In this document: positions 3,485-32,938 of the stretch, in pieces | Numbering within the stretch: the first letter of the stretch is position 1 | How the letters are laid out: each line of letters begins with the position of its first letter | Source of the DNA: a virus | IMG/VR virus record: IMGVR_UViG_3300034073_002951 | Coordinates: 7,092-71,091 of that record | Strand: one strand, 5' to 3' | DNA length: 64,000 nucleotides | Made by a program: the position numbers and the translations under genes | The notes under the pieces: generated by a model | Databases searched by the model: none | Seen by the model: only the letters and a program-made list of their open reading frames with translations | What the model was told of the DNA's origin: nothing

Positions 3485-3485
3485 A

Positions 3486-8166: not shown

Positions 8167-9000
8167 TTAAAATTTATAGATACCACCAATATTCCAAAAA
8201 AGCATATCTCCTTCTAATTTGTCTATATTATGTTCCAACCAATGCCATTGCTTGATATCCCAAAACTGATTACAGGGAAAGGGAGCACTATATTCACTTA
8301 ATCTATTATCAAAGTCATATTCTGATTTTCTTACATCAATCGGTAAATGACCCACTCCACTTTTCTTTAACATTTTTTGGATTGAACTTTCGGTGGATAC
8401 ACAAGTTGTCCATACCATTTTATCGGTGGATGGAAAAAATTGATTTAACTCATCTTCATAATACCCCATCATAAGACCCGAAAGAGTTACACCACTTCCA
8501 CTTGATACTACCAAGTTTTTAAAGTTCTTGTAAGGTTGTATTCTTTCTTTTAAGTAGTTACGATAAAAGTCATGGTCGAATGCATAAGGTAACATTTGCC
8601 ATCCATTTTCTTTTGCTTGTTTCTTTAATGAGTTATACATAATACTCATCATATTTGGTCTGATAGGGTTCATATGAACTTCGGGGTACATTTCTTTTAT
8701 CATACCCAAATACTCTTGTGAAATCTTTTTGGAGTTTGGATACGAAACATGAAATTCAATTCCCAAATCTCTACAAATTGCTGAAAGTACCCAACCTGTC
8801 CAAGAACCATCTACGGATAAGTGAGTAAGTGGTTTACTTCTATCTACATACTTTTTAACTAATTCGTAAACCCCACCAATCTTTCCCCAAGGTGGTAAGT
8901 TAACCCCATCACCCATTAAGTCATCTCGTTTTACCCAAACTGACCTACCTTTTATTTTATATTCTTCTAACGGGGTATTTTCGTTAAATCCTAAAACCAT
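8167..9000 (-). CDS. PLP-dependent enzyme, fold type II (ACC deaminase/D-cysteine desulfhydrase-like)
   Basis: VWVKRDDL...PPWGK (Schiff-base Lys region), SSGSGVT phosphate loop, C-terminal LFWNIGG. Confidence 0.7.
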   Translation of the reverse strand: MVLGFNENTPLEEYKIKGRSVWVKRDDLMGDGVNLPPWGKIGGVYELVKKYVDRSKPLTHLSVDGSWTGWVLSAICRDLGIEFHVSYPNSKKISQEYLGMIKEMYPEVHMNPIRPNMMSIMYNSLKKQAKENGWQMLPYAFDHDFYRNYLKERIQPYKNFKNLVVSSGSGVTLSGLMMGYYEDELNQFFPSTDKMVWTTCVSTESSIQKMLKKSGVGHLPIDVRKSEYDFDNRLSEYSAPFPCNQFWDIKQWHWLEHNIDKLEGDMLFWNIGGIYKF

Positions 9001-9836
9001 ACATTTTTATTTCTTTGAAGATGAGCAAACTGAACTTCACCATTTAAACATTCATCAATCACTTTTTTTAAGTTTTCTGCAAAAGAAGAATTAACATACC
9101 CACCCAATTTCCCGTTTTCCATCGGTTGATTATAACACCACGCGGTATGTTCGGTATATCTAATATTTTTTTGTTTAGAAAGTAATTCTCTACCATCGGT
9201 TACTAACATATCAAAGACACCAAATTTTATTTTTCCATTAGAAGACATTTCAAGTAAAGCTGAATTATCAAACAATTCCCCTCTTGATAAGGATATGAAA
9301 TTTACAGGTTCCTTTACATACTGAAAAAAGTTTCGGTCAAAATAATTCTTCGTTTTATCGGTAAGAGGTAAGGTTGAAACAATTGTTTTAGCCCAACTAA
9401 TAAGTTCCTGTATCTCTTCTTTTGGAGTAGAACTATCTACTACTTTAAAATCATTCAACTTTGATTGTAACTTTCGTGATATTGCACCATTACCAAAAAT
9501 CAAAACATTTTGGTCATCTAATATTTTGTCTTTAATCCAATTAGCACAAGGAACGGATGTTGGTGAAAGAGCAACGACACCAATATTTCTTCGTTTACAC
9601 TCATCCAAATTTACCATATCTACACCATGAGACCTACAAACTACCCATTCTAAATTTTTGTATTTATCAAAGGTAGTTTTACCAACTTTACTAAACTTAA
9701 CAGACAAGACTTTTATGTTGTCTGCTATTTTTAGATTTGGTTTTTCGTAAGCACCTAAAATATTAGAGGACGGTAACCTCTGTAATACGGTTGGTGTTAA
9801 ATCCGCTTTGTCTTTTAATAAAACTTGTTGGTACAT
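8991..9836 (-). CDS. D-isomer-specific 2-hydroxyacid dehydrogenase-like NAD(P)-binding protein
   Basis: RSHGVDMVNLDECKRRNIGV, GNGAIS Rossmann motif, LPLTDKTKN, SRG, EHTAW. Confidence 0.75.
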   Translation of the reverse strand: MYQQVLLKDKADLTPTVLQRLPSSNILGAYEKPNLKIADNIKVLSVKFSKVGKTTFDKYKNLEWVVCRSHGVDMVNLDECKRRNIGVVALSPTSVPCANWIKDKILDDQNVLIFGNGAISRKLQSKLNDFKVVDSSTPKEEIQELISWAKTIVSTLPLTDKTKNYFDRNFFQYVKEPVNFISLSRGELFDNSALLEMSSNGKIKFGVFDMLVTDGRELLSKQKNIRYTEHTAWCYNQPMENGKLGGYVNSSFAENLKKVIDECLNGEVQFAHLQRNKNVWF

Positions 9837-11409
9837 TTTTGTCTATAAATAATTCTTCAAAATAATCTTCTATTTTTTCTTTCCAAATTGATTGTTTCAA
9901 AAAATCTGTATGACATCCAACTTGAAAAGTTTTCTTTGGCCTCCATAGGAGTTCTTCACTTATTTCACCTTCAAATGCTTTTCTTAAAATATATTTCATT
10001 ACCTGACCATTGCCTTCGTTTTCATCACGATACTTGGTGGGTATTCTCAGACCAAAGTCAATTAACTTTTTATTTAAGAATGGTGTTCTTAATTCTACAA
10101 TACCACCCCACATCATTGCTTTATTTGTACGAATAAGATTTGTTTTATGAAGACTATTTAGAAGATTTACTCTTTTTTGGTGATACCAAATTGGTTCTGG
10201 CCAACAAAATCGTTTCACATCCCCATAGGAAGCAAAGATTTCATCTGCACCTTCACCCCCAAACACTACCTTAAATCCCCTTTTATCTATTTCTTGGGAT
10301 AAAAACAATTGAGCAACAGCTGGTGATACCTGTGTCCATTTATGAGTTTCAACCGCCCATATACTTTCTTTTAAAACTTCTTCAATCTGTTCACGGGTAA
10401 CATTCACCTCATTTAATTTTATTCCAAACTCTTTTGCAGCCATTCGTGCATAATACAAATCATCCTTCAAGTTTGATTGTCTTTTTTGTTGAACATTTAC
10501 CACAAATGCTTCAATATTTGGATTTACTTTTGAAAGAAGATATGTAATGATTGTACTATCTATTCCACCACTCAATATAGTACACACGGGTACATCTGAA
10601 ATTAGTTCATCATACACCGCTTCTTCTAACAAATTTCTAAACCCACTTGTGTAATAATCTACACCCCTATCTTCACCTTCATAGGCCATAAACTCTTCAT
10701 CATTTCTTGGATAGTATGCCGTTGGATGATGCAAACTAAATTTTGGTTTAAAATCAAAGTACCGAGTTTCTTTAAGTATTCCCAAAGAATTATAAATTAA
10801 AAAGGTTCCTGGTTCAACTATCTTGATTAATTCTTTGTCTTTATATTTTGAATTAAATCTACTCCCCTTATCAATATTATAATATTTAAGTGAATTTATA
10901 GACTCAGTTAGTCCTTTTACTTCACTTGAAAACGCAATATATTGACCATCATAGTAATAATAAAATGGAAGTCTTCCTATAAAGTCCCTTCCTAAAATTA
11001 ATTCATCTTTTTCCTTATCATAAAAAGCAAATGAAAACATACCTTCCAACTCATTTAACTTTTCTTTAAGGTTATTTTTGTTTTCAATCAAAAAGTATAA
11101 GAGAAGTTCGGTATCAGAACTGGTTGTTTTAAATTTGTATTTACTACGAAGGTATGAATTAAATTTGTCAAATGTGGATTTCCACAACTCACCATTAAAA
11201 GCAAGATAATATCTACCACAATCGGAAGACATTGGTTGATTTGCAATTTCGGAAAGGTCTTGAATGGATAACCTGTTATGAGCAAGTTTCATTCCATTTT
11301 GGAAACTGAAAACAGTATTACCATCCATTCCTCGGTGCATCATAGTCATTAGACCATGTTTTATATCATCCATCGAATTGATGATATTACCACCTAATAT
11401 TCCACACAT
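9763..11409 (-). CDS. asnB: Asparagine synthetase B-like glutamine amidotransferase
   Basis: N-terminal MCGI nucleophile, HNRLSIQDL, NGE, SGGIDS PP-loop, GEGADEIF, ELRTPFL. Confidence 0.88.
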   Translation of the reverse strand: MCGILGGNIINSMDDIKHGLMTMMHRGMDGNTVFSFQNGMKLAHNRLSIQDLSEIANQPMSSDCGRYYLAFNGELWKSTFDKFNSYLRSKYKFKTTSSDTELLLYFLIENKNNLKEKLNELEGMFSFAFYDKEKDELILGRDFIGRLPFYYYYDGQYIAFSSEVKGLTESINSLKYYNIDKGSRFNSKYKDKELIKIVEPGTFLIYNSLGILKETRYFDFKPKFSLHHPTAYYPRNDEEFMAYEGEDRGVDYYTSGFRNLLEEAVYDELISDVPVCTILSGGIDSTIITYLLSKVNPNIEAFVVNVQQKRQSNLKDDLYYARMAAKEFGIKLNEVNVTREQIEEVLKESIWAVETHKWTQVSPAVAQLFLSQEIDKRGFKVVFGGEGADEIFASYGDVKRFCWPEPIWYHQKRVNLLNSLHKTNLIRTNKAMMWGGIVELRTPFLNKKLIDFGLRIPTKYRDENEGNGQVMKYILRKAFEGEISEELLWRPKKTFQVGCHTDFLKQSIWKEKIEDYFEELFIDKNVPTSFIKRQSGFNTNRITEVTVL

Positions 11410-11412
11410 ATT

Positions 11413-12066
11413 TTATTTTTTAAAGAGTTGGTCTCGTTCAATTGTACTACTCATCCAATCAGCCCAATGTAATACATATTGAATGTTGTATTTAAGGTAT
11501 TTGTTTGTATCATAGACTTTATAATATTTTACGTTGTCTTCATCGAAAACCCCATCGGTAAGTTTAATACCAAAATACTCTACTTCATTATATTGAATTC
11601 CATATTTGTTAAACAAAAAGAAAGTTCTATCGGTATGGGATAGATAAGAAAGATTTGGGTTTGATTTATATACCTCACCTTTATTTTTGATGTGCCATTC
11701 ACTTTCATTTGGAACATAATGAGGTTCCCCCTTGTCACCTAATTTACCCAAATCATGATGAAATGCTGCAAACAAAAGTTCATCGGTAGTAAAATCAACT
11801 ACCCCACCTTGTTCTTGGTATAACTTCATCATTTTAAGAGAGTTTCTAACCACATTCATCACGTGGTCAATATACCCACCATCGTAGGCGTTGTGGTAAA
11901 ATGTATTTCCTGATGCGGGTGAAACCATTAGGTTTAAACCCAACTCATCTTCGGAATACATATGGAGAAGTTTTTCTAATCGTTCTCCATTAAAAGACTT
12001 TTCTATTGCTTTAAGAAACTTCTTATAATTTTCTTGTAATTGAGCTTCGTTGTATTGTTTTGTCAT
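11413..12066 (-). CDS. HD-domain phosphohydrolase
   Basis: HNAYDGGYIDH...HHDLGK...LHWAD. Confidence 0.75.
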   Translation of the reverse strand: MTKQYNEAQLQENYKKFLKAIEKSFNGERLEKLLHMYSEDELGLNLMVSPASGNTFYHNAYDGGYIDHVMNVVRNSLKMMKLYQEQGGVVDFTTDELLFAAFHHDLGKLGDKGEPHYVPNESEWHIKNKGEVYKSNPNLSYLSHTDRTFFLFNKYGIQYNEVEYFGIKLTDGVFDEDNVKYYKVYDTNKYLKYNIQYVLHWADWMSSTIERDQLFKK

Positions 12067-12091
12067 AAAAAAATGATTGTATAGTTAATAC

Positions 12092-12120
12092 AATATACAA
12101 ATTTTTTTTATAATTGTCAA
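12092..12120 (-). promoter_or_regulatory. sigma70-type promoter TTGACA-N17-TATATT (HD-asnB-dehydrogenase-PLP operon)
   Basis: Consensus hexamers, 17-nt spacer. Confidence 0.75.
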
Positions 12121-12383
12121 TTATTTAAATGCTCAATTATTGCATTTCTATAAGTCAATTCAGATTGAAGTCCAACAAATCTTTCAACTTCTACCCCATT
12201 TTTTTCATAAATCACCGTTGGTACTGACCTTACATTTGCTTGTTCAACAAATTCTGTTTCTTCTTCTATGTCAATGTGGTGAATTGGAACTTGTGGAAAT
12301 TCCTTTTGAAGTTTATCAAAGACAGGATTTAACATTCTACATGGACCACACCATATAGCATAATATTTTTTAATTTCTAACAT
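12117..12383 (-). CDS. trxA: Thioredoxin
   Basis: WCGPC active site, VRSVPT cis-Pro motif. Confidence 0.92.
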   Translation of the reverse strand: MLEIKKYYAIWCGPCRMLNPVFDKLQKEFPQVPIHHIDIEEETEFVEQANVRSVPTVIYEKNGVEVERFVGLQSELTYRNAIIEHLNN

Positions 12384-12401
12384 TTTTTTAAAAAAATTAA
12401 A

Positions 12402-12429
12402 TAAATGGGGATTTTTACATCCCCATTTA
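12402..12429 (-). terminator. Intrinsic terminator-like hairpin after Hc1-like gene
   Basis: TAAATGGGGAT / ATCCCCATTTA inverted repeat followed by T-rich sequence on the minus strand. Confidence 0.7.
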
Positions 12430-12432
12430 AAT

Positions 12433-12603
12433 TTATTTTGTTTCTTCTACTGAAAGTTTTCTGTATTCAGTAACAAGTTTTTTAAGTTCACCAATTGCTT
12501 TACGGGCACGGGACTTAGCGGCTTTTGAGTTTCCTTGATGTTCTGCTTCAAATTGTGTCCACAATTCACGCATTTGCTCAAAGAGTTCGTGTGATGTTGC
12601 CAT
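12433..12603 (-). CDS. Histone H1-like (Hc1 family) small nucleoid protein, 56 aa (below ORF-track cutoff)
   Basis: MATSHELFEQMRELWTQFEAEHQGNSKAAKSRARKAIGELKKLVTEYRKLSVEETK. The KAAxxRARK...LKKL...YRK signature is recognisable; AAGGAG upstream and a terminator downstream. Confidence 0.8.
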   Translation of the reverse strand: MATSHELFEQMRELWTQFEAEHQGNSKAAKSRARKAIGELKKLVTEYRKLSVEETK

Positions 12604-12689
12604 AAACTTTATTTCTCCTTTTGTTTATTAATAATTATTGTCCTATTGTTATTTTTTTATGATTAAGGACGATTTCATAAAAATTTATT

Positions 12690-13682
12690 TTATTTTTTAA
12701 AATGTTTTTTATACTTTTCAATTATTTTTTCTTTTGGTTCATTTAAAATTACAGATTTCTTATCTAAATATGTATCTGCAAAATTACTCCAAGTTGAAAG
12801 TGGAAATTTAATTAAAAAAGAACAAAAACATAATGAAAATAAATCGATAACATTTTTAAAATGACTATCTGAAAAAATATCATTTTTAATATACTTTAAG
12901 TAGTCATTTTTTCTATGTAAATTATTTGGGTATTTTTCAAACCAATAATCAATTAAATTATCAGGTCCATCATAACTTATATAAAATTTTTGATTTTCAT
13001 TTATTTCTAAAATAGAATCTATTATTTTAAAATAAAAAGTATCATCATAAAAGTCAAATTGATAAAACGATTCTGCTGATTCTTTTTCTCTAAATTTTAT
13101 AAATTCATTTTTTATACCATCATTAATTTCATGTAAATTATTTTTAAAATGTACCCCTCTTCCTCTTCGTACATGAATTCCAATCATGTTTGAAGTAAAA
13201 TCTTTTAAAATTTTTTCTAAATTTTTATCTTTTATCTTAATATCTTTTATATGTCTTTTAAACTGTTCAGAATCTGAAAATATATCATCCAATCTCGTAA
13301 ATCCAAAATCTGAATACCAATTTTCTGAAGATTGAATTTGTTTTTTTGATAATAATATTTCATCCAATAAGTCTTTATTAATTGGTTTTGATTCTATTTT
13401 ATCAGTTCCTTCTAAATCAAGATTTTTAAAATTCAAAAGATTTATAGATTGCTCAACTTCAACATCTTCTTTAATTAAAATCGTATTAGGTAAATCAAGT
13501 AACTCTAAAAGTTCAGGATAATGTGTTTGTTGTAACAAAATTTTAAATTTGTTTCCATGCAATTTATTTATTTCTTGTGCAATTTCCCAAAAAAATAATC
13601 TATTACACAAACCTGTATCATAACTTCTGTAAATTTCATCGGTATCTCTACCGAATGGTTCTATCCACCTTAATGTACTCAT
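12690..13682 (-). CDS. Fucosyltransferase-like glycosyltransferase (GT11/GT23-like)
   Basis: GLCNRL N-terminal motif, IGIHVRRG, DLFSL...STWS; very AT-rich. Confidence 0.65.
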   Translation of the reverse strand: MSTLRWIEPFGRDTDEIYRSYDTGLCNRLFFWEIAQEINKLHGNKFKILLQQTHYPELLELLDLPNTILIKEDVEVEQSINLLNFKNLDLEGTDKIESKPINKDLLDEILLSKKQIQSSENWYSDFGFTRLDDIFSDSEQFKRHIKDIKIKDKNLEKILKDFTSNMIGIHVRRGRGVHFKNNLHEINDGIKNEFIKFREKESAESFYQFDFYDDTFYFKIIDSILEINENQKFYISYDGPDNLIDYWFEKYPNNLHRKNDYLKYIKNDIFSDSHFKNVIDLFSLCFCSFLIKFPLSTWSNFADTYLDKKSVILNEPKEKIIEKYKKHFKK

Positions 13683-14224
13683 TTAATTTTAATTAATTCT
13701 AAAATTTGTTGGGTAGCGGATTCCGTTGGAAACGTATGAAAATTAATATTATTTTTAATAAGTATTTCTTTTAGTCTTTTATCAATCTCTTTACTTTGTT
13801 CTAAATTTTGGTATCTACCCTCATCTTCAAATTTTAATTCATCTCTTTCCAAAAATATATTTACATTATCATATTTGTTATGTAATGAAATGATAAAATC
13901 ATCAAATTCTTTTCCATAAAAAGAAGCAGGATAATATGGTTTTTCATCATAAAAGTTTTTATACACCAAGGAAAGAAGTATTGGTGAATCTACTATAATA
14001 TAATCCACCTCACCCCAACTTCGTGCTATACCTCTATGTTGATTACCTATTACATAAAATTGGTCACGTATAGCAGGATAATTCTTATCCCATGCTAAAA
14101 CCTTTGGAAATTCATAAGGAGCATCTGCCTTAATATGTCTTTTCTTTAATTCAGACAATAATGCAGCTGCTACTGATGATTTTCCAGCCGAAGGTCCTGC
14201 AAATAAATTGATAATTTTACTCAT
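13679..14224 (-). CDS. P-loop kinase/ATPase (NadR/AAA_28-like)
   Basis: GPSAGKS Walker A, IIVDSPILL, GRYQ. Confidence 0.7.
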   Translation of the reverse strand: MSKIINLFAGPSAGKSSVAAALLSELKKRHIKADAPYEFPKVLAWDKNYPAIRDQFYVIGNQHRGIARSWGEVDYIIVDSPILLSLVYKNFYDEKPYYPASFYGKEFDDFIISLHNKYDNVNIFLERDELKFEDEGRYQNLEQSKEIDKRLKEILIKNNINFHTFPTESATQQILELIKIK

Positions 14225-14231
14225 AAAAAAT

Positions 14232-14253
14232 ATGGGAAGGTTTCCCTCCCCAT
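14232..14253 (-). terminator. Intrinsic terminator after TonB-dependent receptor
   Basis: ATGGGGAGG-GAAA-CCTTCCCAT stem with GNRA loop followed by ATTTTTT. Confidence 0.8.
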
Positions 14254-14258
14254 TTATT

Positions 14259-16970
14259 TTAGAAATTGTATCTTAACGATGCATTCCACGTTCTACCAAA
14301 ACCAAACCATACAGAGTTACGAACATCAACATCATTCCATGTTGGTGCGGTTCCATCTGCGTGAATGTTGGTATTTGATTCAGCAATATAAACGGTATCA
14401 AACACGTTGTTTACGTTTACTCTGAACGAAGCGTTATGCTTCATCAAATCAAATCTAACAGTAAGACCTAAATCTACCAATCCATAGGAAGGAAGTTCAA
14501 GTGCTCCTTTGTTATCAGGTCTTGTAAAGTCTGATGAAGTAATAGAATAGTCAGCAAATAACTTATCTGCGAAACGATGACTAATGTCTAAACTTACATC
14601 ATCAACTCTAAAGTCAGCTTCTAAGTAAGTAGTAAACTGTGCTGCATCACCAACTTTAGCTCCTTTAGTATAAAGAGTACCTGTACCGATTTGTTGGTTG
14701 TTATCATCAAAGAGTACAGTAGAGAAGTCTTTTGTATATCTCCAATCACCAACTGAAACCATACCTGTTAGTTTCAGAGCGTTGAATGGACGATAAGTTG
14801 TTTCTACTTCTACACCATTGTGAAGAACATCAATATCACGGAACTGTGCAGTACCGTCTGTACCGTCTGCGGTTCTAAATCCTCTACTGATGAAACGATT
14901 ACCCCATACTGTGGAGTAGGCATTTACATTCAAAGTAAAGTCAGTACCTAAGTAACCGTAACCTAACTCAACAGATGTTACTCTTTCATTTTGTAGATCT
15001 GGATTGACTAAGTTTGCGTAGTTAGGAAATACAGCATCAAAGTTTGGTTGACGAGAAATGAAACCTGCATTGAAGAATACATTCTGTCTATCATTGATGT
15101 TGTAGTTTGCTCCACCTTTTACATATCCACCACCTTGGTTTACTTCTTCGGAAAGAGGAAGTGTTGGTTGGTCAAAAAGGTCTTCTCTTTGGAAGGATTG
15201 GTTAGATACACCTGCTTGAACTACTGCTGTAAGTTCTTCACCTGTATACTCGACCAAACCGTTTAGACCTTGCCATCCAACATAACCGACATTATAGTAG
15301 TCGATTTTCGGGCCGTTGAGACCTGTATTTTTGAATGGAGATGGGTCAATCAAAGTTTCAATGATTTGACCTGCGGAGTTCTTATTACCTGTTGAATAAT
15401 AACCATCAAGACCCATAAGGTCAGTTACTACTCGGTAGTGGTAGCCTGTATAGTCTCTCAAGTCAATACCAACTGATGCACGAAGAGTTTCACCTTCATA
15501 TTCCAAGTTAGAAATAACTCCATACCAGTCGTGTGAGTTCATAGAAGCTCTACGAATAAGAACCGCTCTATTTACTCCATCATTACGGAAACCGTTTGAA
15601 CCGATACGAAGACCTTCAAAGCGTGAAATTGCTCCTGTGTAAGCTCCTGTGGTTGCTCTATTGACTTCAATGACTTTATCAAAATCAATAAATCCATCAG
15701 CATCTCTTGTACCTCTACCACGGTTTAAGTAGTGTTCGGTCAAGTCAATGTTGAATGGATACATATCAATATCACCATTACGGAAGTTATTTCCACGAGG
15801 ACCAGTTCCTCCACCTCTACCTGCGGAAGCATAGAAAGAAGTATTCAACTGAAGTCTATCTGTGATTTCATAATCCCAGTTGAATGTTGCTAATGGTTTG
15901 TTGTAGAAGTTTCTTCTCATATTGAACTCTTCACCATCTAAGAATCCAGCATCAGTATTCCATCTTCTATCAATACCTTCTTCACCGAAGTTTTGGTAGT
16001 CACGGATTGATACCCATGAGTCTCTTTGGTGGTGCCATTGACCTGCTCCTAAAACCGAAAGGTTTAGAGAGTGACGGGAGTCAGTTGGATTATATCCTAC
16101 TGCGACAAAGTAAGTATGACCTTCACCTTGTGTTCCGTAGACATATCCATTACCCGCCCAATAGGAATAGAGGAAGGAAGTTGCCCATCCACTTTCACTT
16201 CTACCTGTGGAATAGGAAAGAGTTGTTTTGGTATAACCATCGTTACCGACAAGTTGAGATACAGTACCACCTCTTTCTCTCTCCGCAGCTTTTGTGAAGA
16301 TAGATACAGTACCACCTACTGATGGAACTGCAAGACGAGAAGCACCAAGACCTCTTTGGATTTGGATACCAGAAGCTACATCAGTCAAACCTTGCCAGTT
16401 AGACCAATATACCCATCCGTTTTCCATATCATTAACGGGTTGGCCATTGATAAGGAATGATGTATTACGTTGATCAAAACCACGAAGTGAAATACGGGAA
16501 TCACCATATCCACCACCTGTCTTGGTTGCGTAAACACCGGGTGTTCTTGCCATTACTTCTGGAAACTCTTGATTACCCACTCTTTGTGAGATTTCAAGAG
16601 GTGGAATTGTAGATACTGCAACAGGGGTTTCCCTGATTCTTGCAATATCAATAACTCCGGAAGTAACAACAATCTCACCAAGTTCACCGAACGCCTGTTC
16701 AAGTCTTACGACCATTCCATTTGTTGCAGAAACTTCTTGAGTTTTATAACCAACAAAAGATACTACCAAAACCGTACCTTCGGTTGCTTCTTGAAGTGTA
16801 AAAGAACCATCCATACCGGTACTAGCTCCGATATGTGGGCGTTCTTTCACAACAACAGTAGCACCGGGTAATCTTTCGGAAGTACTTGCATCAACCACAG
16901 TACCTGTGATTTGTGCATTTGCTACCAATGATGAAAACATCATTGTGATTGCTATTAGTAGTTGTTTCAT
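14259..16970 (-). CDS. TonB-dependent outer-membrane receptor with N-terminal carboxypeptidase-regulatory-like domain
   Basis: Signal peptide MKQLLIAITMMFSSLVANA/Q; ITGTVVD...LPGATV...VSFVGYK; plug ISLRGF...LINGQP; beta-barrel ending YNF. Start set at ATG 16970. Confidence 0.92.
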   Translation of the reverse strand: MKQLLIAITMMFSSLVANAQITGTVVDASTSERLPGATVVVKERPHIGASTGMDGSFTLQEATEGTVLVVSFVGYKTQEVSATNGMVVRLEQAFGELGEIVVTSGVIDIARIRETPVAVSTIPPLEISQRVGNQEFPEVMARTPGVYATKTGGGYGDSRISLRGFDQRNTSFLINGQPVNDMENGWVYWSNWQGLTDVASGIQIQRGLGASRLAVPSVGGTVSIFTKAAERERGGTVSQLVGNDGYTKTTLSYSTGRSESGWATSFLYSYWAGNGYVYGTQGEGHTYFVAVGYNPTDSRHSLNLSVLGAGQWHHQRDSWVSIRDYQNFGEEGIDRRWNTDAGFLDGEEFNMRRNFYNKPLATFNWDYEITDRLQLNTSFYASAGRGGGTGPRGNNFRNGDIDMYPFNIDLTEHYLNRGRGTRDADGFIDFDKVIEVNRATTGAYTGAISRFEGLRIGSNGFRNDGVNRAVLIRRASMNSHDWYGVISNLEYEGETLRASVGIDLRDYTGYHYRVVTDLMGLDGYYSTGNKNSAGQIIETLIDPSPFKNTGLNGPKIDYYNVGYVGWQGLNGLVEYTGEELTAVVQAGVSNQSFQREDLFDQPTLPLSEEVNQGGGYVKGGANYNINDRQNVFFNAGFISRQPNFDAVFPNYANLVNPDLQNERVTSVELGYGYLGTDFTLNVNAYSTVWGNRFISRGFRTADGTDGTAQFRDIDVLHNGVEVETTYRPFNALKLTGMVSVGDWRYTKDFSTVLFDDNNQQIGTGTLYTKGAKVGDAAQFTTYLEADFRVDDVSLDISHRFADKLFADYSITSSDFTRPDNKGALELPSYGLVDLGLTVRFDLMKHNASFRVNVNNVFDTVYIAESNTNIHADGTAPTWNDVDVRNSVWFGFGRTWNASLRYNF

Positions 16971-17038
16971 ATGTGTTTTTTGTTTTTTGTTGTTTGTATT
17001 GATACCACACATAGTATGGTATTTATCCTTTTTTTTTT

Positions 17039-19285
17039 TCAAAAGAATTTGTTTGTGTTATTATTTACTTTTATTCTTTTATTCGTTTCCTCAATATAAG
17101 GATTTTTTTGTTCATAGTCAATTCTTGCTTCCGCTATCTCAAAGTATTCCTTTTCTCTTTCTATTCCAATAAAATCAAATCCACCCCTTACTGCTGCCTT
17201 ACCAGTACTTCCACTGCCCATAAACGGGTCTAATGTAGTTCCACTTTTTGGAGTAACTAAACGGATAAGATAAAGCATTAAGTCTGTTGGTTTTACAGTT
17301 GGGTGGTGGTTCTTTCTTGGTTGACCTAATGCACTCTGTCTGCCCGATGCTGGTTTGGACCGGGCGGAAGCCGGAGGTTCTCCAAACGGAAACTCATCCA
17401 ACCCTTCGTTTCTATCCCCTTTTGAAGTTTTTGGACAATAGAAGAAACGAGATGCTCCGCCACTATCATTATGTCTTACTGTTACTTTATTTTTTAACCC
17501 TTTAAAAAAATCATTTTGTTCTTCGGGATTTGTATAACCTATACTTGTTGCCGTACATTTACTCAACCCACTTTGTTCGTCCAATAACTTACCTGCTTCT
17601 TCATCAAAGATAATGTTGGCAGGGAAACGGCCAGGTGGATTATAGTTCTTTGGTTCAACCATAGAGTAATCCCCATATATTATATTACCTGTTAGTGGTT
17701 TTGTTCCAAAGTCTGCGTGTTGGTTTTTTTGTGTGCTTTCTTTTCTATCCGCTTCATCTTTGAATGGTATTCTACTTTCATCTATGTTTATTCCACCGGT
17801 TCCCCATTCTAATACATTATCAACTACTGTATTTTCAGAGAGTGGTTTTCTTGCCATTACGATTGGTTCGTGTGCAGGTTTGAGAGCCGTCCCCCAACCT
17901 TCCCAATCAGAGTTTCCTTTGGTTATTTCCCATTCTCCTACACCATAGGTTGAACCATCATAGTCTGGACTATTTGGGTCTGCTTTACCCCAACAAGCAT
18001 TTTTAGCAGTTCTACTATCATTTCCAACTACTTCTCTTTGATTACCAAGTTTTTTATCAACCTCTTTTCCTATGTTGTGTGATTTGGGGAAGCCTGAGTT
18101 TCCTGTAATGAATACTTTTCCATTTCTACGAGCAACAAAAGCACCAGTTGAGGTGTTAGGACAGAAGATTACTCCTGAATAAGTTTCTTTGGTGATGGTT
18201 GCCAAATCGGTTGTATAGGATGTCCCGCTTCGTATTTCTTGTGGTCGGAGTTGTTCTTGAATAACATTAGATTGTTTATCTCGTTGTTTTCGGGGTTGTG
18301 GTCTATGTGATGGATGCACTCCATTCGTGTTAGTGGTCTCCCCAAATATTGAGCTACCTTCAGTCGGTATTCCGTCACGTAACCATCTTTTCTTGCCATA
18401 CTTTTGTATTCTTCGGGACACCTCACGTATTTTATTCTTGCATTGGAGTAATACCCCTTCTTCTTTCTGTAAGTTATCCCACCCTTCCAAGCTGGATTGT
18501 TCTCCCCACTCATATTCTGTCTGTAACTCTCGTGACTCTTTTCCGTCCACCCCGAACGACCTTTGTGTCCGTGATGTTTCCATTCTTCCCCCCTCACTTT
18601 GCCATTGCATTGGTGACTGCAATAATTGGAGTTCCCCTTCTTGTAAGAAAGAAAAATCGTTTTGCAAAACTGGCACTCTTTCCATATCACCGAGGTCTTG
18701 TGATTTGGTGAATACAAGATTTCCATTTCGTTCAACAAGGCAGTTGTGGTCTTTGCTGACGAGTTGGTCTGTTTGATTTCCTCTAATACGATAGACGGTA
18801 TCTTCGTTGAGCGAATATACATACCACCTTTCGGGCCTTTCCCATTTGTAAATGTCTCTTTCAATATCATAAACTAAAATCTCTCTTTTACTATAAATAT
18901 CATCTTTTGTGATTTTATGGTAGTGTTTCCACCCCTCTTTTGTAAGGATTTCAGTATCTTCTGTTAGACATCCATACACCCACATAATTTGGTCTCTTAT
19001 CTCAAATCCTGCATCTTCTATTCTAACTGCCATTCTATGATAAGTACGTGAACCTGCAAAAGCAAGAAGATGACCTCCGGGTTTTAGAACTCTCATACAC
19101 TCTTCCCAAATCTCTTGTGACGGAACATCGTAGTCCCACTGCTTTCCCATAAATCCACCTTTGGAAGTTTTACCACTATTTGGAGCTGCGGAAAGTCCGT
19201 ATGGAGGGTCCGTAACTATGGAGTCAACGGAATTATCCCCTAACTCTTTGAGTTTATCTAAACAATCACCTAATAAGAGTTTCAT
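17039..19285 (-). CDS. N4/N6 DNA methyltransferase (beta class) containing an intein
   Basis: IVTDPPY (motif IV) at the N-terminus; HPTVKP and LDPFMGSGSTG (motif I) at the C-terminus; the conserved WVYG|SGFPKS is split by a 291-aa insertion. Confidence 0.92.
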   Translation of the reverse strand: MKLLLGDCLDKLKELGDNSVDSIVTDPPYGLSAAPNSGKTSKGGFMGKQWDYDVPSQEIWEECMRVLKPGGHLLAFAGSRTYHRMAVRIEDAGFEIRDQIMWVYGCLTEDTEILTKEGWKHYHKITKDDIYSKREILVYDIERDIYKWERPERWYVYSLNEDTVYRIRGNQTDQLVSKDHNCLVERNGNLVFTKSQDLGDMERVPVLQNDFSFLQEGELQLLQSPMQWQSEGGRMETSRTQRSFGVDGKESRELQTEYEWGEQSSLEGWDNLQKEEGVLLQCKNKIREVSRRIQKYGKKRWLRDGIPTEGSSIFGETTNTNGVHPSHRPQPRKQRDKQSNVIQEQLRPQEIRSGTSYTTDLATITKETYSGVIFCPNTSTGAFVARRNGKVFITGNSGFPKSHNIGKEVDKKLGNQREVVGNDSRTAKNACWGKADPNSPDYDGSTYGVGEWEITKGNSDWEGWGTALKPAHEPIVMARKPLSENTVVDNVLEWGTGGINIDESRIPFKDEADRKESTQKNQHADFGTKPLTGNIIYGDYSMVEPKNYNPPGRFPANIIFDEEAGKLLDEQSGLSKCTATSIGYTNPEEQNDFFKGLKNKVTVRHNDSGGASRFFYCPKTSKGDRNEGLDEFPFGEPPASARSKPASGRQSALGQPRKNHHPTVKPTDLMLYLIRLVTPKSGTTLDPFMGSGSTGKAAVRGGFDFIGIEREKEYFEIAEARIDYEQKNPYIEETNKRIKVNNNTNKFF
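18098..18970 (-). mobile_element. Intein (291 aa) in DNA methyltransferase
   Basis: Block A CLTEDTEILTKEGWK, block B SKDH, block F/G VIFCPNTSTGAFVARRNGKVFITGN, followed by Ser+1. Confidence 0.92.
18169..18870 (-). CDS. HNH homing endonuclease encoded in the +1 frame inside the intein
   Basis: CQFC...CSHQC zinc motif, GENNPAWKGG, EYRL...LGRPL...IHHIDHNPENNEINNL (HNH_3-type). Alternative start ATG 18726. Confidence 0.85.
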   Translation of the reverse strand: MILKETFTNGKGPKGGMYIRSTKIPSIVLEEIKQTNSSAKTTTALLNEMEILYSPNHKTSVIWKECQFCKTIFLSYKKGNSNYCSHQCNGKVRGEEWKHHGHKGRSGWTEKSHESYRQNMSGENNPAWKGGITYRKKKGYYSNARIKYVRCPEEYKSMARKDGYVTEYRLKVAQYLGRPLTRMECIHHIDHNPENNEINNLMLFKNNSDHKKYEAGHPIQPIWQPSPKKLIQE

Positions 19286-20037: not shown

Positions 20038-21270
20038 TTAAAAGTTTGTGTAAATTTCAAGGTTTTTGTATTTTTTTCTGCATTCTTTTACTGTTTTCAC
20101 TTCATTTTTAAAATCTAAATAATCAAAATGAGAACTTGACCATATTTTTTTTAATTCAAATTCCTCATCACTAAATGTTCCCCAATTATTTATATGAATA
20201 AAATTTACTTCCGTTCGCATTCCATTCAATTTTTGAAAGTAATCACTCATTTCTATGAAGGATACCATTTCTTTGTAATTGTTATTTTGAACTACAAAAG
20301 TCATTCTAACAAAATCCAAGTTTGGTATTTTTGTAAAAATAAAATGAAGATTTTTTTGAAGTCTTTCCCAAATACCCCCTCTTCTTATGACCTCATATGT
20401 TTCTTTTGTGGAGGCATCAATACTAATTTCAGCTGCTATTCTTGGAATTTTATGTAAGTTTGATAACTTGTTCCATAATTCTTCAGTCCATCCATTTCCA
20501 TTTGTATGAAGGTGTAAAGTTTTTACTTGAGGATATTTTTCTATTGTTATTGATTTTAATAAATTTCTCCAATTTTTACCACCAAAAGGATCACCAGATG
20601 CTGTTATATATAATTCATGAGCATCTTTCATGGTTTTTTTAAGAATATAATTTTGTATTTTTTCTGATTGTTTCTTTTCTTCACCTTCATACTGAATAAA
20701 TTCATTTCTACAAGAAGGACAACTTAAATTACAACTTCTATCGTGTGAAAAAATTACGGTTTCAGGATCCCATTTTAATTCAGTCAATTTGTTAAAATAA
20801 ATTTCTTTCCACTTTTCTTCACCATCTGGATTTATTTCTTTAGCATTCCAAAGTTTATGAATAGTTGTATCATCATAAATTGGAAAATATCCGTTATTAT
20901 AAACACTTTCATCTATATTTTCATTCCACCATCTGTGTAAAAACCCACATTCATTTTCGTCACAGTATTTAAAATCACCATCATGCATTGATTGACGAAG
21001 TTTTATTGCAATTTCACTATTCCAAATTTTTTCCCAATTTTTTTCATTCAAAACATTTCCCGCAGGACCACTTTGTATCCAAGCGTTTTGCCATTTTTTT
21101 AATTCCTCAACCCAATATCCACTACAACATTGCCAAACTTCACCATTTACTAAAAATTCTGCATTCCTAAAAGGAGCAACACAAAACCCTTTTCTTTTTG
21201 GTTTAAAATTATCTGTTTTATACTCTTCAGATAATATTTCATTAATTATTTGTTGTATATCATCGGTCAT
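20038..21270 (-). CDS. Radical SAM protein with N-terminal SPASM/twitch domain
   Basis: CVAPF...GEVWQCC...GNV (SPASM-like), CNLSCPSC, SGDPF, HTNG, ISIDA. Confidence 0.85.
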   Translation of the reverse strand: MTDDIQQIINEILSEEYKTDNFKPKRKGFCVAPFRNAEFLVNGEVWQCCSGYWVEELKKWQNAWIQSGPAGNVLNEKNWEKIWNSEIAIKLRQSMHDGDFKYCDENECGFLHRWWNENIDESVYNNGYFPIYDDTTIHKLWNAKEINPDGEEKWKEIYFNKLTELKWDPETVIFSHDRSCNLSCPSCRNEFIQYEGEEKKQSEKIQNYILKKTMKDAHELYITASGDPFGGKNWRNLLKSITIEKYPQVKTLHLHTNGNGWTEELWNKLSNLHKIPRIAAEISIDASTKETYEVIRRGGIWERLQKNLHFIFTKIPNLDFVRMTFVVQNNNYKEMVSFIEMSDYFQKLNGMRTEVNFIHINNWGTFSDEEFELKKIWSSSHFDYLDFKNEVKTVKECRKKYKNLEIYTNF

Positions 21271-22693: not shown

Positions 22694-23911
22694 TTATTTT
22701 TCAAAAATATATATCGGTTCTCCAAATTTCATATCCTGTGTTTCATCTACCAAATTTCGTGTGTCATCATTAAAGTGGTCTGTTTTGGCTGTTCCCGCTC
22801 CTCCATTATTAGGACGAGATGCTATTTGCATTCCAATACAACCTCTGTATTTTAAATTGTTTGATTCTAAAAATTCATTCATTGGATTTACGATTTCTAA
22901 ATAACCTTTTGTTGATGATGAATAAACATCAGAAATATTAATTGCTAAAATACCTCCCTTTTTTAGGGTAGGTATAATTTTTTTTAAAACAGAATGTAAA
23001 AAATTTTTATTCCATTCATCAATTGTTTTGTATCTTACCCAACTTTGTGTGTTATCGTTGGAATATCTTTCCGTATCGAAATACGGTGGGGATGTAAAAA
23101 CAGTATCAAAATAATTTTCATATTCTGAATAATCTACATCTTCTGCTGGTTGTGATATAAATGTTGCCCTTTTTGGTTCTTCAAAAAATGTTTGGTATTT
23201 TTTGTAATACTCTTCTTGTTTTAAATAGTTTTCATGATTATTTACGTTAGGATCTATACCAACATAGTGTTTAGTAGTTTCACCTGCGTAAAACCCACAG
23301 AATCGGTCTCCCCATCCTGCTGAAAAATCTAACACATTTTCTGATTTAAAATAGTCATAAAATGCTTTTGCAATTACAGGTTTGAATTGTGAAGCTACAT
23401 ATTTTCTCATTTGTATAGCTAAAATAATGTTTTTTTTATTTACTTCTTGTAAATGTTCCGAAAGAGTAAAAAAAGCTTGAATTGAGGTTTTTATACCTTT
23501 TGGAGTTTGCCAACTTTTCCAACCAGATGGCATTCTTACCCAATCTACCTTATGTCTATTTTCCAAATGAAATTTATTTGAAGCTTTATTTCCTGTATTA
23601 ATTCTTTTAAATGATAAAAATTTTCCATCAAATTTTAAATCATATTTGGTTTTTCTACCATTTCTTGGAAACCAATTTCCTTCAACTAAAATATCCGGCC
23701 ACCAAGTTCCTTTTAATTTCTTATAATCATCTAATACTTCATCGTCTGGTATATCAGGTAGTGGATAATCATAAGAATGCAAAACATGAGATAATTCATC
23801 TACAATACTTTCCCTTTCCCAAGTTTTTTTAATCCAATCCCATTCTTCTTTTTCAATAGTGAGATATGGTGACATACCATAAAATTTTTTAAAATACTCA
23901 CTAATTTCCAT
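22694..23911 (-). CDS. SAM-dependent (amino) DNA methyltransferase
   Basis: VLDFSAGWGDR (motif I), YVGIDPN, VFTSPPYF (motif IV). Start set at ATG 23911. Confidence 0.8.
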   Translation of the reverse strand: MEISEYFKKFYGMSPYLTIEKEEWDWIKKTWERESIVDELSHVLHSYDYPLPDIPDDEVLDDYKKLKGTWWPDILVEGNWFPRNGRKTKYDLKFDGKFLSFKRINTGNKASNKFHLENRHKVDWVRMPSGWKSWQTPKGIKTSIQAFFTLSEHLQEVNKKNIILAIQMRKYVASQFKPVIAKAFYDYFKSENVLDFSAGWGDRFCGFYAGETTKHYVGIDPNVNNHENYLKQEEYYKKYQTFFEEPKRATFISQPAEDVDYSEYENYFDTVFTSPPYFDTERYSNDNTQSWVRYKTIDEWNKNFLHSVLKKIIPTLKKGGILAINISDVYSSSTKGYLEIVNPMNEFLESNNLKYRGCIGMQIASRPNNGGAGTAKTDHFNDDTRNLVDETQDMKFGEPIYIFEK

Positions 23912-32338: not shown

Positions 32339-32938
32339 TTATTTACACTCTACCTCGTATTCATTCCAAGGTTTGGTAGGTGGTTCGTTCAAGAAATAAT
32401 AACATTGCCACTTTTGGGTACTACGGAAATAAATTCTTTTGTAGAACGCATCAGGAATTTCTGCTCCTGTTGGTAATACCTGTGGTACGTCATCAAAAAT
32501 AACATCCACTCTTACATCCAACTCACCAAATACTTCAGCCCATTCTCTTTCTTTTTCTTCCAACAATCTCCACTGAACTCTATTCAATTTTTGATGTTGA
32601 AGTGCTGAATTTAGATATGTAAATGTTTGTGCTAAATTTTGTTTTGTATCAGCAAAATGAGCGGCAGGAGCCATATGTCCTTTATCCCATTCGTTCTTTA
32701 CATAATCAGCGTTATTAGAAGTATGGTAATCACTTTCTTCAAAGAAATCCATTCCCTTTCTATCTGCTCCCTTTGTAATTTTTCTAACCGTATATTCTAC
32801 CCAAAGTGGCTGTTCTTTGGTTTCAGAATACATGATTCTAAATATAGGTTTTTCAACCAATACTGAATCTCGGAGTTGAGCATAAGTTGAAGATGTTAAA
32901 ATAAAAAGTGTTAGAAGTAATGCTGATATTTTTTTCAT
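32339..32938 (-). CDS. Secreted DNA/RNA non-specific endonuclease (NucA/Serratia-type)
   Basis: Signal peptide MKKISALLLTLFILTSSTYA/Q; PLWVEY, DKGHMAPA, TFTYLN, LNR..WRLLE, IPDAFYK. Confidence 0.88.
   Translation of the reverse strand: MKKISALLLTLFILTSSTYAQLRDSVLVEKPIFRIMYSETKEQPLWVEYTVRKITKGADRKGMDFFEESDYHTSNNADYVKNEWDKGHMAPAAHFADTKQNLAQTFTYLNSALQHQKLNRVQWRLLEEKEREWAEVFGELDVRVDVIFDDVPQVLPTGAEIPDAFYKRIYFRSTQKWQCYYFLNEPPTKPWNEYEVECK

Follow-up and report, generated by a model that had tools for sequence, protein, structure and literature searches.

Cyanophages carry pstS and phoA, phage copies of genes for host envelope nutrient-capture proteins, which are thought to raise the supply for phage replication and whose host-like alleles are traded with hosts. 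The TonB-dependent receptor (TBDR) gene analysed here lies in a 64,000-nucleotide stretch of IMG/VR virus record IMGVR_UViG_3300034073_002951 (the window, meaning the whole of that stretch) and shares this likeness. It differs from pstS in that it would encode a TonB-energised outer-membrane channel rather than a periplasmic binding protein, and from both cyanophage genes in that degradative enzymes and a putative trapping kinase of the phage's own stand alongside. [quoted passage not shown] Our receptor is distant from that of LR745206, the match being limited to residues 87-293 (30.5% identity).

The use of DNA by means of a TonB-dependent transporter (TBDT) and secreted nucleases has a precedent in Bacteroidota. 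According to the parts of PMC12478041 that describe them, this applies to the ddbABCDEF loci of gut Bacteroidales, to which natural-transformation genes of Riemerella are related. The phage cassette described below can be likened to these loci, and both mix types of signal peptide (PMC12478041). However, the phage TBDR belongs to another family, with 22% identity (E 2e-9) over its N-terminal part to the DdbC-like neighbour of a bacterial orthologue (locus L117), which stood in for B. thetaiotaomicron DdbC in this comparison. Of 80 genome loci, 9 had a DdbC-like TBDT near the bacterial orthologue, and 7 had an Exo_endo_phos_3 nuclease. The gene for the DUF5689 lid (DdbD) occurred in 7 genome loci and in 0 of 80 viral loci (window included); in L117, the one locus inspected, it follows a different, 910-aa TBDT. 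The phage nucleases (S1/P1 and Endonuclease_NS) are also different ones; the carriers are lytic-type phages, in which the transporter gene is coupled with one for a kinase-like protein.

The receptor and its surroundings

The open reading frame (14259..17042, minus strand) was found to be uninterrupted. Read from the ATG at 16970, which is the biologically sensible start, it encodes a protein of 903 residues that begins with MKQLLIAITMMFSSLVANAQ and ends with RYNF (Table 1). When 49 long ORFs of the window were put through a hydrophobicity screen, only the TBDR and one other were flagged. The three Pfam matches (CarbopepD_reg_2, Plug and b-barrel) each exceed their curated cut-offs, with 51.9 bits against 23.9 for the plug (53.5 bits in a record-wide family search) and 32.6 bits against 27 for PF00593 (TonB_dep_Rec_b-barrel, residues 365-856, 1.1e-7). 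The AlphaFold2 model had a mean pLDDT of 76.5, the barrel strands (233-902) reaching 80-90, while the plug was modelled poorly. When this model was searched with Foldseek, FhuA, PqqU, Fiu, YncD, FecA and OprC were retrieved at E values from 5e-29 to 1e-24 (FhuA, 5e-29, with a TM score of about 0.7 on the target), a result that gives the class of the protein and not its substrate. Like FhuA, FecA and OprC, the TBDR has a plug in a large beta-barrel, carries a TonB-box-like motif and ends in an aromatic residue; it differs from them in its additional Bacteroidota-type N-terminal CarbopepD_reg domain and shares 11-14% identity with them. [quoted passage not shown]

Table 1. Features of the receptor gene and associated genes (window coordinates)
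Feature	Position	Strand	Basis
TonB-dependent transporter gene, 903 aa + stop	14259..16970	-	ORF, translation, Pfam domains, fold
Predicted signal peptide, residues 1-20	16911..16970	-	basic N-terminus, hydrophobic core, ANAQ, read from sequence
CarbopepD_reg_2 N-terminal extension, residues 21-101	16668..16910	-	Pfam PF13715, 9e-16
TonB-box-like motif EIVVTS, residues 99-104	16659..16676	-	conservation across orthologues
Plug domain, residues 112-220	16311..16637	-	Pfam PF07715, 1.2e-13
Beta-barrel, residues ~233-903, terminal Phe	14262..16274	-	AF2 strands, Foldseek, Pfam PF00593
Intrinsic-terminator-like hairpin (GAAA loop) and T run	14222..14253	-	hairpin search, folding energy
9-bp hairpin in TBDR leader	17002..17022	-	hairpin search, folding energy
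AAA_28 P-loop protein, nucleoside/nucleotide-kinase fold	13679..14224	-	Pfam AAA_28, profile, Foldseek
Exported Endonuclease_NS (non-specific DNA/RNA endonuclease), signal peptide	32339..32938	-	Pfam PF01223, 3.5e-27; N-terminus

Alignment of 46 phage and bacterial orthologues showed L97, E99, D108, A110, R113, T115 and P116 to be invariant or nearly so. The motif EIVVTS in this region, conserved in these orthologues, is a putative TonB box, to judge from the TonB-box consensus. The C-terminal residue is F in most orthologues and L in a few, and the CarbopepD_reg domain is absent from some, both phage and bacterial. In a sequence search of the PDB this domain was the sole part of the TBDR to resemble solved RagA/SusC chains (RagA 6sli and the SusC homologue 9hfj). 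The protein is not a SusC: no SusC/RagA match (TIGR04056) was found in NCBIfam at E <= 1e-3, where the search gave no specific family, and no SusD-like neighbour was present in any locus scanned. The domain architecture is Bacteroidota-like, as stated in the first-pass annotation, but the likeness does not extend to SusC.

Immediately after the gene, a hairpin with a 9-bp stem and a GAAA loop, followed by a T run, begins 6 nt past the stop (14253-14232, minus strand); its energy of -16.4 kcal/mol (z -2.92) was equalled by 2 of 200 shuffles. The leader, which comprises 68 nt between the stop of a DNA methylase gene and the TBDR start, is A-rich and contains a second hairpin of 9 pairs (including one G-U) with a 3-nt loop (-11.5 kcal/mol, z -2.85, equalled by 2 of 200 shuffles) and no T run on its 3' side. 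Sigma-70-like sites near the gene were not commoner than in shuffled sequence, as assessed with a tool that does not cover Bacteroidota promoters. The neighbours on the same strand encode the DNA methylase (17039-19285), dUTPase, a radical SAM protein, DnaB, PolB and UvsX/RecA, and sheath, tube, tape measure and fibre genes lie farther away in the same contig (71,091 b, about 35% complete by CheckV). The contig is that of a T4-like myovirus, in whose replication module the gene sits; the uncultured phage is large (about 200 kb) and infects planktonic marine Bacteroidota. The features of the gene agree with the first-pass annotation, which had described an intact receptor of about 900 residues with signal peptide, CarboxypepD_reg-like domain, plug, barrel and terminal Phe, a GNRA terminator of its own, a small hairpin in the leader and phage genes on both sides.

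Distribution and exchange with hosts

Relatives of the TBDR with 63-84% identity are encoded on 447 IMG/VR stretches, which span several phage groups distinct in gene content. Among 50,697 catalogued phage records only 22 matched, the best with 34% identity. The statement of the annotation that such large transporters are uncommon in phages is thus correct for catalogued records but not for IMG/VR. We inspected the best 80 of the 447 viral stretches and the best 80 of more than 594 bacterial matches. At least one further protein of the window phage was encoded in 70 of the 80 related viral loci (PolB with about 70%, a clamp-like protein with about 75% and AAA_28 with about 52% identity). The neighbour families of viral and bacterial loci were disjoint: none of 81 viral loci contained PGI, M23 or DUF3108, and none of the 80 genome loci contained AAA_28. 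Contigs from two other runs of the same study crossed the junctions with no difference in sequence, the 5' one in one run and the 3' one in both; these Logan contigs, being short, end within the TBDR, and none covers the gene from end to end. Among RNA runs, none was listed as containing window positions 13000-18000. The first-pass annotation had pointed to the risk of an assembly chimera with host DNA. This, as well as host contamination, is excluded by the shared phage genes, the disjoint neighbourhoods and the junction-crossing contigs.

Further evidence came from the pattern of substitution. The dN/dS ratio between viral copies had a median of 0.167 (range 0.014-0.268, 399 viral pairs), and more than 150 invariant columns are common to phage and bacterial copies down to 41% identity, which indicates that the phage copies are under purifying selection. 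It is very probable that the TBDR is a real, selected phage gene. Being flanked by phage genes, present in related phages, homologous to a cellular gene and under purifying selection, it is a candidate phage auxiliary metabolic gene.

The comparison with host receptors that the annotation had called for showed that phage and bacterial copies form one orthogroup. In Flavobacteriales and Cytophagales this orthogroup is single-copy and chromosomal and usually adjoins pgi; each bacterial genome has one orthologue (68-71% identity), the next paralogue being at most 32% identical. In the IQ-TREE tree, phage and bacterial copies were interleaved, and the virus label required 10 changes, at least 9 of which are forced by starred branches. 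A single viral clade was rejected (delta lnL 800.7, p-AU 3e-54), which rules out a one-time acquisition by phages. Both the conserved pgi synteny and the branches at the base of the clade are bacterial, which favours capture from host to phage, and thus a host origin of the phage TBDR. Replacement in the opposite direction, from phage to host at the same site, may also have occurred. Given at least nine allele exchanges between phage and host, which cross families and orders, phages may also have been a vehicle that spread the TBDR clade through Bacteroidota.

Gene neighbourhoods and the proposed substrate

In phages the TBDR is the core of a cassette with the order (exported Endonuclease_NS)-TBDR-(81-aa membrane protein)-exported S1/P1 nuclease-AAA_28 kinase-like protein. 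Among the 53 viral groups that remained after de-duplication at 95%, AAA_28 was found in 22, the 81-aa protein in 12, GMP reductase/IMPDH in 11, S1/P1 in 10 and Endonuclease_NS in 3, while 22 groups, several of them represented by short contigs, had no cassette gene within four ORFs of the TBDR. The TBDR has AAA_28 as its direct neighbour in 38 of 81 viral loci; Endonuclease_NS homologues lie directly 5' of it in phage loci other than the window. An example is locus L028 (TBDR 8813-11515, 81-aa protein 11565-11810, S1/P1 11807-12568, AAA_28 12565-13110), where stops and starts overlap. The association was also apparent in the reverse direction. A search with an S1/P1 profile, which matched 0 of the 50,697 catalogued phage records, retrieved 39 IMG/VR loci, of which 30 had a TBDR just upstream, 2 ended at a contig edge and 7 were without a TBDR; AAA_28 was downstream in 32 and Endonuclease_NS ahead of the TBDR in 6. 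Signal peptides were present at the N-terminus of 16/16 S1/P1 proteins and 4/4 cluster copies of Endonuclease_NS, as well as of the window's own Endonuclease_NS. Those of S1/P1 are of the plain type, and some phage Endonuclease_NS copies have a lipoprotein-like Cys. We did not find this cassette described in the literature, marine phage papers included; supplementary tables could list such genes.

The AAA_28 protein gave its best profile matches with the ribosylnicotinamide-kinase domain of NadR and with deoxyguanosine kinase, and its Foldseek matches were NadR, thymidylate kinases and dCK, while the Atlas gave nothing past the family assignment. The NadR kinase domain phosphorylates nicotinamide riboside, a point against the scavenging reading given below. 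For the 81-aa protein we found no Pfam family, and the Atlas returned only viral hypothetical clusters with a weak lead to CBU_0592/DUF6552. We call it a membrane protein because three moderately hydrophobic stretches can be read in its sequence; a simple hydropathy screen found no transmembrane segment at its threshold. The window's copy of the TBDR is the weakest case for the cassette reading: only AAA_28 adjoins it, the Endonuclease_NS gene is 15 kb off, and S1/P1 and the 81-aa protein were not found in the 71 kb of the phage's record.

On the bacterial side, an Arcticimaribacter MAG (L104) has the TBDR orthologue followed by S1/P1, a NupC-type nucleoside transporter, a LOG-family protein and Endonuclease_NS; the NupC and LOG neighbours were seen in this locus only among the bacterial loci searched. 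A general bacterial link between S1/P1 and the TBDR was not found in 121 sampled Flavobacteriaceae genomes. S1/P1 was present in 77 and a TBDR relative in 51; by a reading of coordinates, 39 had both, and none of these 39 had the pair within 10 kb, the nearest being 17.5 kb apart. Thymidine kinase (9 loci) and RecJ (8 loci) also occur near the bacterial orthologue, and we gave them no weight because they are cytoplasmic housekeeping genes in conserved synteny.

The annotation had suggested auxiliary nutrient uptake as one role for the receptor, and this is the reading that we favour; because of the gene neighbourhoods, nucleic-acid breakdown products, which had not been foreseen, are indicated as the substrate class. 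We consider it somewhat more probable than not that the phage TBDR is the outer-membrane leg of a nucleic-acid scavenging system which imports such products in the manner of the Bacteroides ddb loci; to judge from the cassette, DNA and RNA from outside the infected cell may be gathered to build phage genomes. We infer the following order of steps. The TBDR would be expressed during infection, exported via Sec and folded into the host outer membrane, and the host TonB system would energise it, consistent with the conservation of the TonB-box-like motif, plug and barrel. Exported phage nucleases, Endonuclease_NS in the window phage and S1/P1 in many relatives, would cut extracellular DNA and RNA, and the fragments or nucleotides would pass the outer membrane via the TBDR. 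Once these have crossed the inner membrane as well, the AAA_28 kinase-like protein encoded next to the TBDR may trap them as nucleotides, which would enter the phage nucleotide module (GMP reductase, at G000:C1:4677-5738 in the window phage, dUTPase and thioredoxin) and finally genome replication.

Alternative functions and implications

It is unlikely, though a serious alternative, that the TBDR imports iron, another metal, haem or a cofactor (cobalamin, PQQ), and so supplies the phage ribonucleotide reductase and radical SAM enzymes in a trace-metal-poor ocean. The best fold matches (FhuA, PqqU, Fiu, FhuE, FecA, OprC and BtuB) are of this kind, as are most solved structures, since such importers dominate that set. 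In 19 of 80 loci the bacterial orthologue is followed by a four-helix membrane protein of 145 aa that has four conserved His and is its commonest downstream neighbour; 6 of 18 members gave weak cytochrome-b561-type matches, Pfam matches were weak and mixed, and no PDB match was found. The protein hints at redox or metal chemistry, but it was missing from all 81 viral loci. In the window, the third gene upstream of the TBDR encodes a radical SAM protein, and in locus L003 the gene after the TBDR encodes a B12-binding one. Names given in source records, such as 'cobalamin receptor' and 'Fe transport', are generic COG labels, and the NCBIfam siderophore and B12 equivalogs were far below cut-off (TonB-B12 (BtuB), 34 against 599.7 bits; MxcH, 30 against 925). 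Moreover, no siderophore, haem or cobalamin genes were found beside the TBDR in the phage and bacterial loci examined, and metal or cofactor import leaves unexplained the tight reciprocal link in phages to exported nucleases and a kinase-like protein.

Less probable still, and not supported by our results, is receptor remodelling, a decoy or superinfection exclusion, whereby the phage allele would replace or dilute a host orthologue serving as phage receptor and so block adsorption by the same or rival phages. In its favour, phages often use TonB-dependent transporters as receptors, and the fold matches include the FhuA-T5 pb5 and FhuA-Llp structures; the grouping of phage alleles with particular host clades, with the turnover described above, could reflect an arms race. 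Nevertheless, purifying selection and the many invariant columns are unlike a diverging decoy, an extra receptor would probably trap progeny on debris, and the nuclease-kinase cassette would again have no explanation. The idea of a host-derived passenger idle in infection, or of a chimera or contaminant, is very improbable and already largely refuted: the region's GC content (0.39-0.41) exceeds the 0.29-0.35 typical of the window and the Logan contigs are broken within the gene, but PolB, sheath and fibre, which are conserved phage genes, are as GC-rich, contigs with the gene in the same phage context carry about 74 different dataset numbers (counted by eye), other runs bridge both junctions, dN/dS is 0.17, and none of the 81 viral loci has any bacterial neighbour gene.

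Beyond the import of nucleic-acid breakdown products by the TBDR itself, we tentatively propose, with less confidence, that planktonic Bacteroidota phages have a portable nucleic-acid utilisation locus, with nucleases at the surface or in the periplasm, a TonB-dependent channel, a small protein of the inner membrane and a kinase for trapping, which would let the infected cell scavenge dissolved DNA and RNA, debris left by earlier lysis included. Such a locus would pay for a phage genome far beyond the supply from host recycling. Dissolved DNA and RNA form a large marine pool of organic phosphorus and nitrogen, and Flavobacteriia dominate following algal blooms. The repeated swap of an outer-membrane protein gene between host and phage offers a clean new example in which to study how genes for envelope proteins flow. 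If the scavenging role is true, the logic of DNA utilisation recently described in gut Bacteroidales would reach marine bacteria and their viruses, and a highly conserved Bacteroidota transporter orthogroup would have its first functional handle. Viral infection would then re-capture nucleic acids besides releasing them, which would change the budgeting of the 'viral shunt'.

The receptor gene and its phage setting

The first-pass annotation had described an intact TonB-dependent receptor (TBDR) gene with its own terminator and a leader hairpin, and this was confirmed. The reading frame is open, with a sensible ATG start at 16970 giving 903 aa; the translation has a typical signal peptide and ends in RYNF, and three domains scored above the curated Pfam cut-offs (table). 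Terminator and hairpin were both present, each being equalled or beaten by only 2 of 200 shuffled sequences. The motif EIVVTS occupies the TonB-box position and is kept across phage and bacterial orthologues. Some orthologues (viral loci L059–L066 and L079, genome loci L093–L116) lacked a whole CarbopepD_reg domain but had a TonB-box-like motif; variants without the N-terminal domain, from phages and bacteria alike, grouped together in the tree. An AlphaFold2 model made from 46 orthologues (mean pLDDT 76.5) had a confident barrel and a poorly modelled plug, and its Foldseek matches were FhuA, PqqU, Fiu, YncD, FecA and OprC (E 5e-29 to 1e-24). Likeness in sequence to solved RagA/SusC chains was confined to the N-terminal domain, and an NCBIfam search gave neither an equivalog nor the SusC signature.

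The source, an IMG/VR virus record (71,091 b, of which the window is bases 7092–71091), was about 35% complete according to CheckV. All long ORFs of the window lie on a single strand. Besides PolB, DnaB and a clamp-like protein they encode a UvsX-like recombinase, SSB, dUTPase, thioredoxin and three DNA methylases; after these come the genes for sheath, tube, tape measure and baseplate and for very long fibres. The closest catalogued phage was Microcystis phage Mel-JY01 (PolB 54%, sheath 46% identity), with Flavobacterium phage vB_FspM_immuto second; both were absent from the TBDR matches among catalogued phages. Mel-JY01 as top relative of a Bacteroidota-type phage points to a phylum-spanning lineage or to a host assignment worth rechecking. 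Signal-peptide-like N-termini were found in 2 of 49 long ORFs, the TBDR and an Endonuclease_NS.

Genes for DNA modification are also abundant in the window, which encodes an asparagine-synthase/QueC-like PP-loop enzyme and a 2OG-Fe(II) oxygenase-like protein besides its three DNA methyltransferases. Between DnaB and dUTPase is a radical SAM protein of twitch/SPASM type that had no PHROG match; five relatives encode homologues of it (30–32% identity) close to the TBDR. Two genes located between PolB and the clamp-like gene, for a sulfotransferase and a DUF6734 protein, may serve cell-surface or DNA-sugar modification. Two fibre proteins (2177 and 1115 aa) contain repeated collagen-like or fibre modules matching dozens of PHROG tail-fibre families.

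Positions of features in the window and in related loci
Feature	Position	Remark
TBDR open frame	window 14259..17042 (-)	
CarbopepD_reg_2	TBDR residues 21-101	
TonB-box position	TBDR residues 99-104	EIVVTS
Plug	TBDR residues 112-220	
TonB-dependent barrel	TBDR residues 365-856	
Terminator	window 14253-14232 (-)	GAAA loop and T run
Leader hairpin	window 17022-17002 (-)	
Closest-phage search proteins	window 3486-5936; 46291-48699	
DNA-modification genes	window 6510-7367; 17039-19285; 22694-23920; 9763-11409; 35331-36110	
Radical SAM protein	window 20038-21270	
Sulfotransferase and DUF6734	window 1778-3553	
Endonuclease_NS	window 32339-32938	signal-peptide-like N-terminus
Fibre proteins	window 56577-63110; 52552-55899	2177 aa; 1115 aa
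3' junction contigs	window 12000-14310; 13850-14310	
5' junction contig	window 16757-17716	
81-aa hydrophobic protein	L028 11565-11810	and 15 other viral loci
Envelope/secreted proteins	L074 2273-9371; L060 13857-15779	
145-aa four-His protein	L117 10846-11283	and 18 other genome loci; directly downstream of orthologue
DdbCD-like locus	L117 13028-17139	also L084, L118, L123, L124, L126
Locus of orthologue and nucleic-acid genes	L104 1-6121	

The phage flanks claimed for the gene were borne out by its relatives, found in 447 stretches of IMG/VR. The best 80 of these share 63–84% identity across nearly the full length, and 70 of the 80 encode nearby at least one further protein of the window's phage (AAA_28 P-loop protein in 42, clamp-like protein in 27, PolB in 19). 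We clustered the neighbours within four ORFs on each side in 161 loci (81 viral, 80 genome). The viral and bacterial families were disjoint, bar S1/P1 nuclease, Endonuclease_NS, a glycosyltransferase and two families with one viral and one genome locus each. In a Pfam scan, ten viral loci without window-like neighbours all looked phage-like, of other kinds: one carried PolA and GroEL along with a holin, another a primase, RNR, ThyX and a protein of 2739 aa, and further loci a helicase with DUF5856, Que genes with a divergent PolB, or a ligase with PNKP and DnaJ. Thus, several phage groups distinct in gene content carry the TBDR. Two further runs of the study from which the record may derive gave contigs that crossed the 3' junction without differences, and those of one run also crossed the 5' junction. 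An assembly chimera, named at first pass as a refuting outcome, was rejected on the relatives' companion genes, the disjoint neighbour families and these contigs.

In two other TBDR-bearing phages (L074 and L060), we observed more envelope or secreted proteins: one with a fasciclin domain, an M43 peptidase, type IX secretion sorting domains (CHU_C and Por_Secre_tail), part of a PHO4-like phosphate transporter, and GroEL accompanied by Hsp20.

Bacterial orthologues and gene exchange

More than 594 bacterial stretches encode TBDR relatives. Three genomes searched whole each contained one orthologue (68–71% identity), the next paralogue being at most 32% identical. The Flavobacteriaceae order is conserved and of housekeeping character (UvrC, DUF3108, M23 peptidase, PGI, TBDR); PGI is directly upstream in 27 of 80 genome loci, from both the ~65–70% and the 40–45% identity groups, which indicates that members of both are orthologues. 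In Schleiferiaceae and Cryomorphaceae the gene comes after recA. No SusD-like gene or polysaccharide locus surrounded the bacterial orthologues in the loci examined. A relative at E <= 1e-100 was present in 51 of 121 sampled Flavobacteriaceae genomes, just 5 of the 51 being at least 55% identical. The nearest bacterial sequence (L082, 77%) lies amid MnmE, HlyD and AcrB genes and is therefore chromosomal.

Comparison with host receptors by phylogeny, also suggested at first pass, gave trees in which viral and bacterial sequences interleave (FastTree, 157 sequences; IQ-TREE, 72 sequences). The IQ-TREE topology needed 10 changes of virus label, at least 9 being forced by well-supported branches; a single viral clade was rejected, at a cost of 800.7 log-likelihood units (p-AU 3e-54). 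Within the high-identity clade, bacterial sequences form the basal branches, and several viral sequences pair with coherent bacterial clades as their sisters, a pattern consistent with phages having repeatedly captured the local host's allele. The median dN/dS was 0.167 for viral pairs (399 pairs) and 0.067 for bacterial pairs (22 pairs), but dS was higher and partly saturated in the latter. We are confident that the phage gene encodes a functional importer and is under selection, and it is most improbable that it is a passenger or an artefact.

A Crocinitomicaceae MAG contig (L109) and an 86-kb IMG/VR contig (L064) are sisters in the tree. L109 has two neighbour families, one a 1461-aa protein, in common with a single viral locus, suspected to be L064; one of the two contigs may be misclassified as genome bin or virus.

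A cassette of nucleases and a kinase-like protein in phages

Pfam annotation of neighbour clusters placed the phage copies in a nucleotide-metabolism setting. Within four ORFs of the TBDR, AAA_28 was found in 38 of 81 viral loci (22 of 53 groups after 95% de-duplication), IMPDH/GMP reductase in 17 (11 groups), an 81-aa hydrophobic protein in 16 (12 groups), S1/P1 nuclease in 14 (10 groups) and Endonuclease_NS in 3 (3 groups); ribonucleotide reductase, clamp-loader subunits, GroES, NadE and thioredoxin also recurred. In viral locus L028, GroES and then GMP reductase precede the TBDR, which is followed by the 81-aa protein, S1/P1 and AAA_28 in turn, with overlapping stops and starts. Every S1/P1 copy starts with a signal peptide followed by Trp, and the Endonuclease_NS copies have signal peptides too, with a lipoprotein-like Cys in two. 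The AAA_28 profile best matched the NadR ribosylnicotinamide-kinase domain (E 0.011) and deoxyguanosine kinase, and its model (pLDDT 79.7) was nearest to NadR, thymidylate kinases and deoxycytidine kinase. The 81-aa protein, situated between TBDR and S1/P1 or just after S1/P1, has no His and no family, and its Atlas matches were viral clusters only.

The linkage was reciprocal. An S1/P1 profile retrieved 39 loci from IMG/VR (near-duplicates counted separately), with a TBDR just upstream in 30; 2 ended at a contig edge, and 7 were without TBDR, three of them distant S1/P1 relatives (29–38% identity). AAA_28 was downstream in 32 of the 39, the 81-aa protein was present in 29, and Endonuclease_NS preceded the TBDR in 6. 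Among 50,697 catalogued phage records S1/P1 had no match and Endonuclease_NS had 25, the best in Flavobacterium phage immuto (53%). Within the 71 kb of its record, the window's phage has a reduced set, the TBDR-AAA_28 pair and an exported Endonuclease_NS 15 kb off; its GMP reductase sits just beyond the window.

Substrate and significance

The first-pass proposal of auxiliary uptake was partly supported and could be sharpened to candidate nucleic-acid import. This reading best explains the tight reciprocal linkage in phages of two exported nuclease kinds, a small hydrophobic protein and a nucleoside/nucleotide-kinase-like protein within a nucleotide-metabolism module. The nucleases would act outside the cell or in the periplasm, their products would pass the outer membrane through the TBDR, and the kinase-like protein would trap them inside. 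On balance we slightly favor such a division of labor, similar to Sus or to the DNA-utilisation (ddb) loci of gut Bacteroidales; the latter, described recently (PMC12478041), are a mechanistic precedent in bacteria.

Bacterial neighbors bear on the substrate in both directions. On an Arcticimaribacter MAG contig (L104) with ordinary bacterial genes, the orthologue is followed by S1/P1, by a NupC-type nucleoside transporter encoded on the opposite strand, by a LOG-family protein and by an Endonuclease_NS that is exported; from its gene content, the locus has the look of a complete unit for nucleic-acid utilisation. In Robiginitalea (L117), a divergent TBDT of 910 aa, nearly devoid of Pfam signal, begins 2.3 kb downstream of the orthologue and is followed by a protein combining DUF5689 with a lamin-tail domain, an Exo_endo_phos_3 nuclease lying in between. 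The 910-aa TBDT and DUF5689 pair resembles DdbC/DdbD, and similar neighbors occur in 7–9 of 80 genome loci; several of these appear as DdbCD-like DNA-uptake or DNA-utilisation loci of marine Flavobacteriaceae (table). Evidence in the other direction is that S1/P1 and the TBDR relative were never less than 10 kb apart in the 121 sampled Flavobacteriaceae genomes. The commonest gene downstream of the bacterial TBDR encodes a four-helix membrane protein of 145 aa, of no family, with four conserved His. Its likeness to b-type cytochromes, although only weak, would be compatible with a substrate linked to redox chemistry or metals. Import of a metal or cofactor is the main competitor of nucleic-acid import, though an unlikely one in view of the phage cassette; receptor remodelling, the other role suggested at first pass, we regard as less probable still.

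[quoted passage not shown] The term 'TonB' was not found in the marine phage genomics papers checked for it, nor did full-text literature searches yield a description of the orthogroup or cassette in phages; unremarked entries in supplementary tables are possible. Auxiliary uptake genes of phages are known; what is new here is an outer-membrane TonB-dependent channel accompanied by its own nucleases, an arrangement that is apparently undescribed and widespread.
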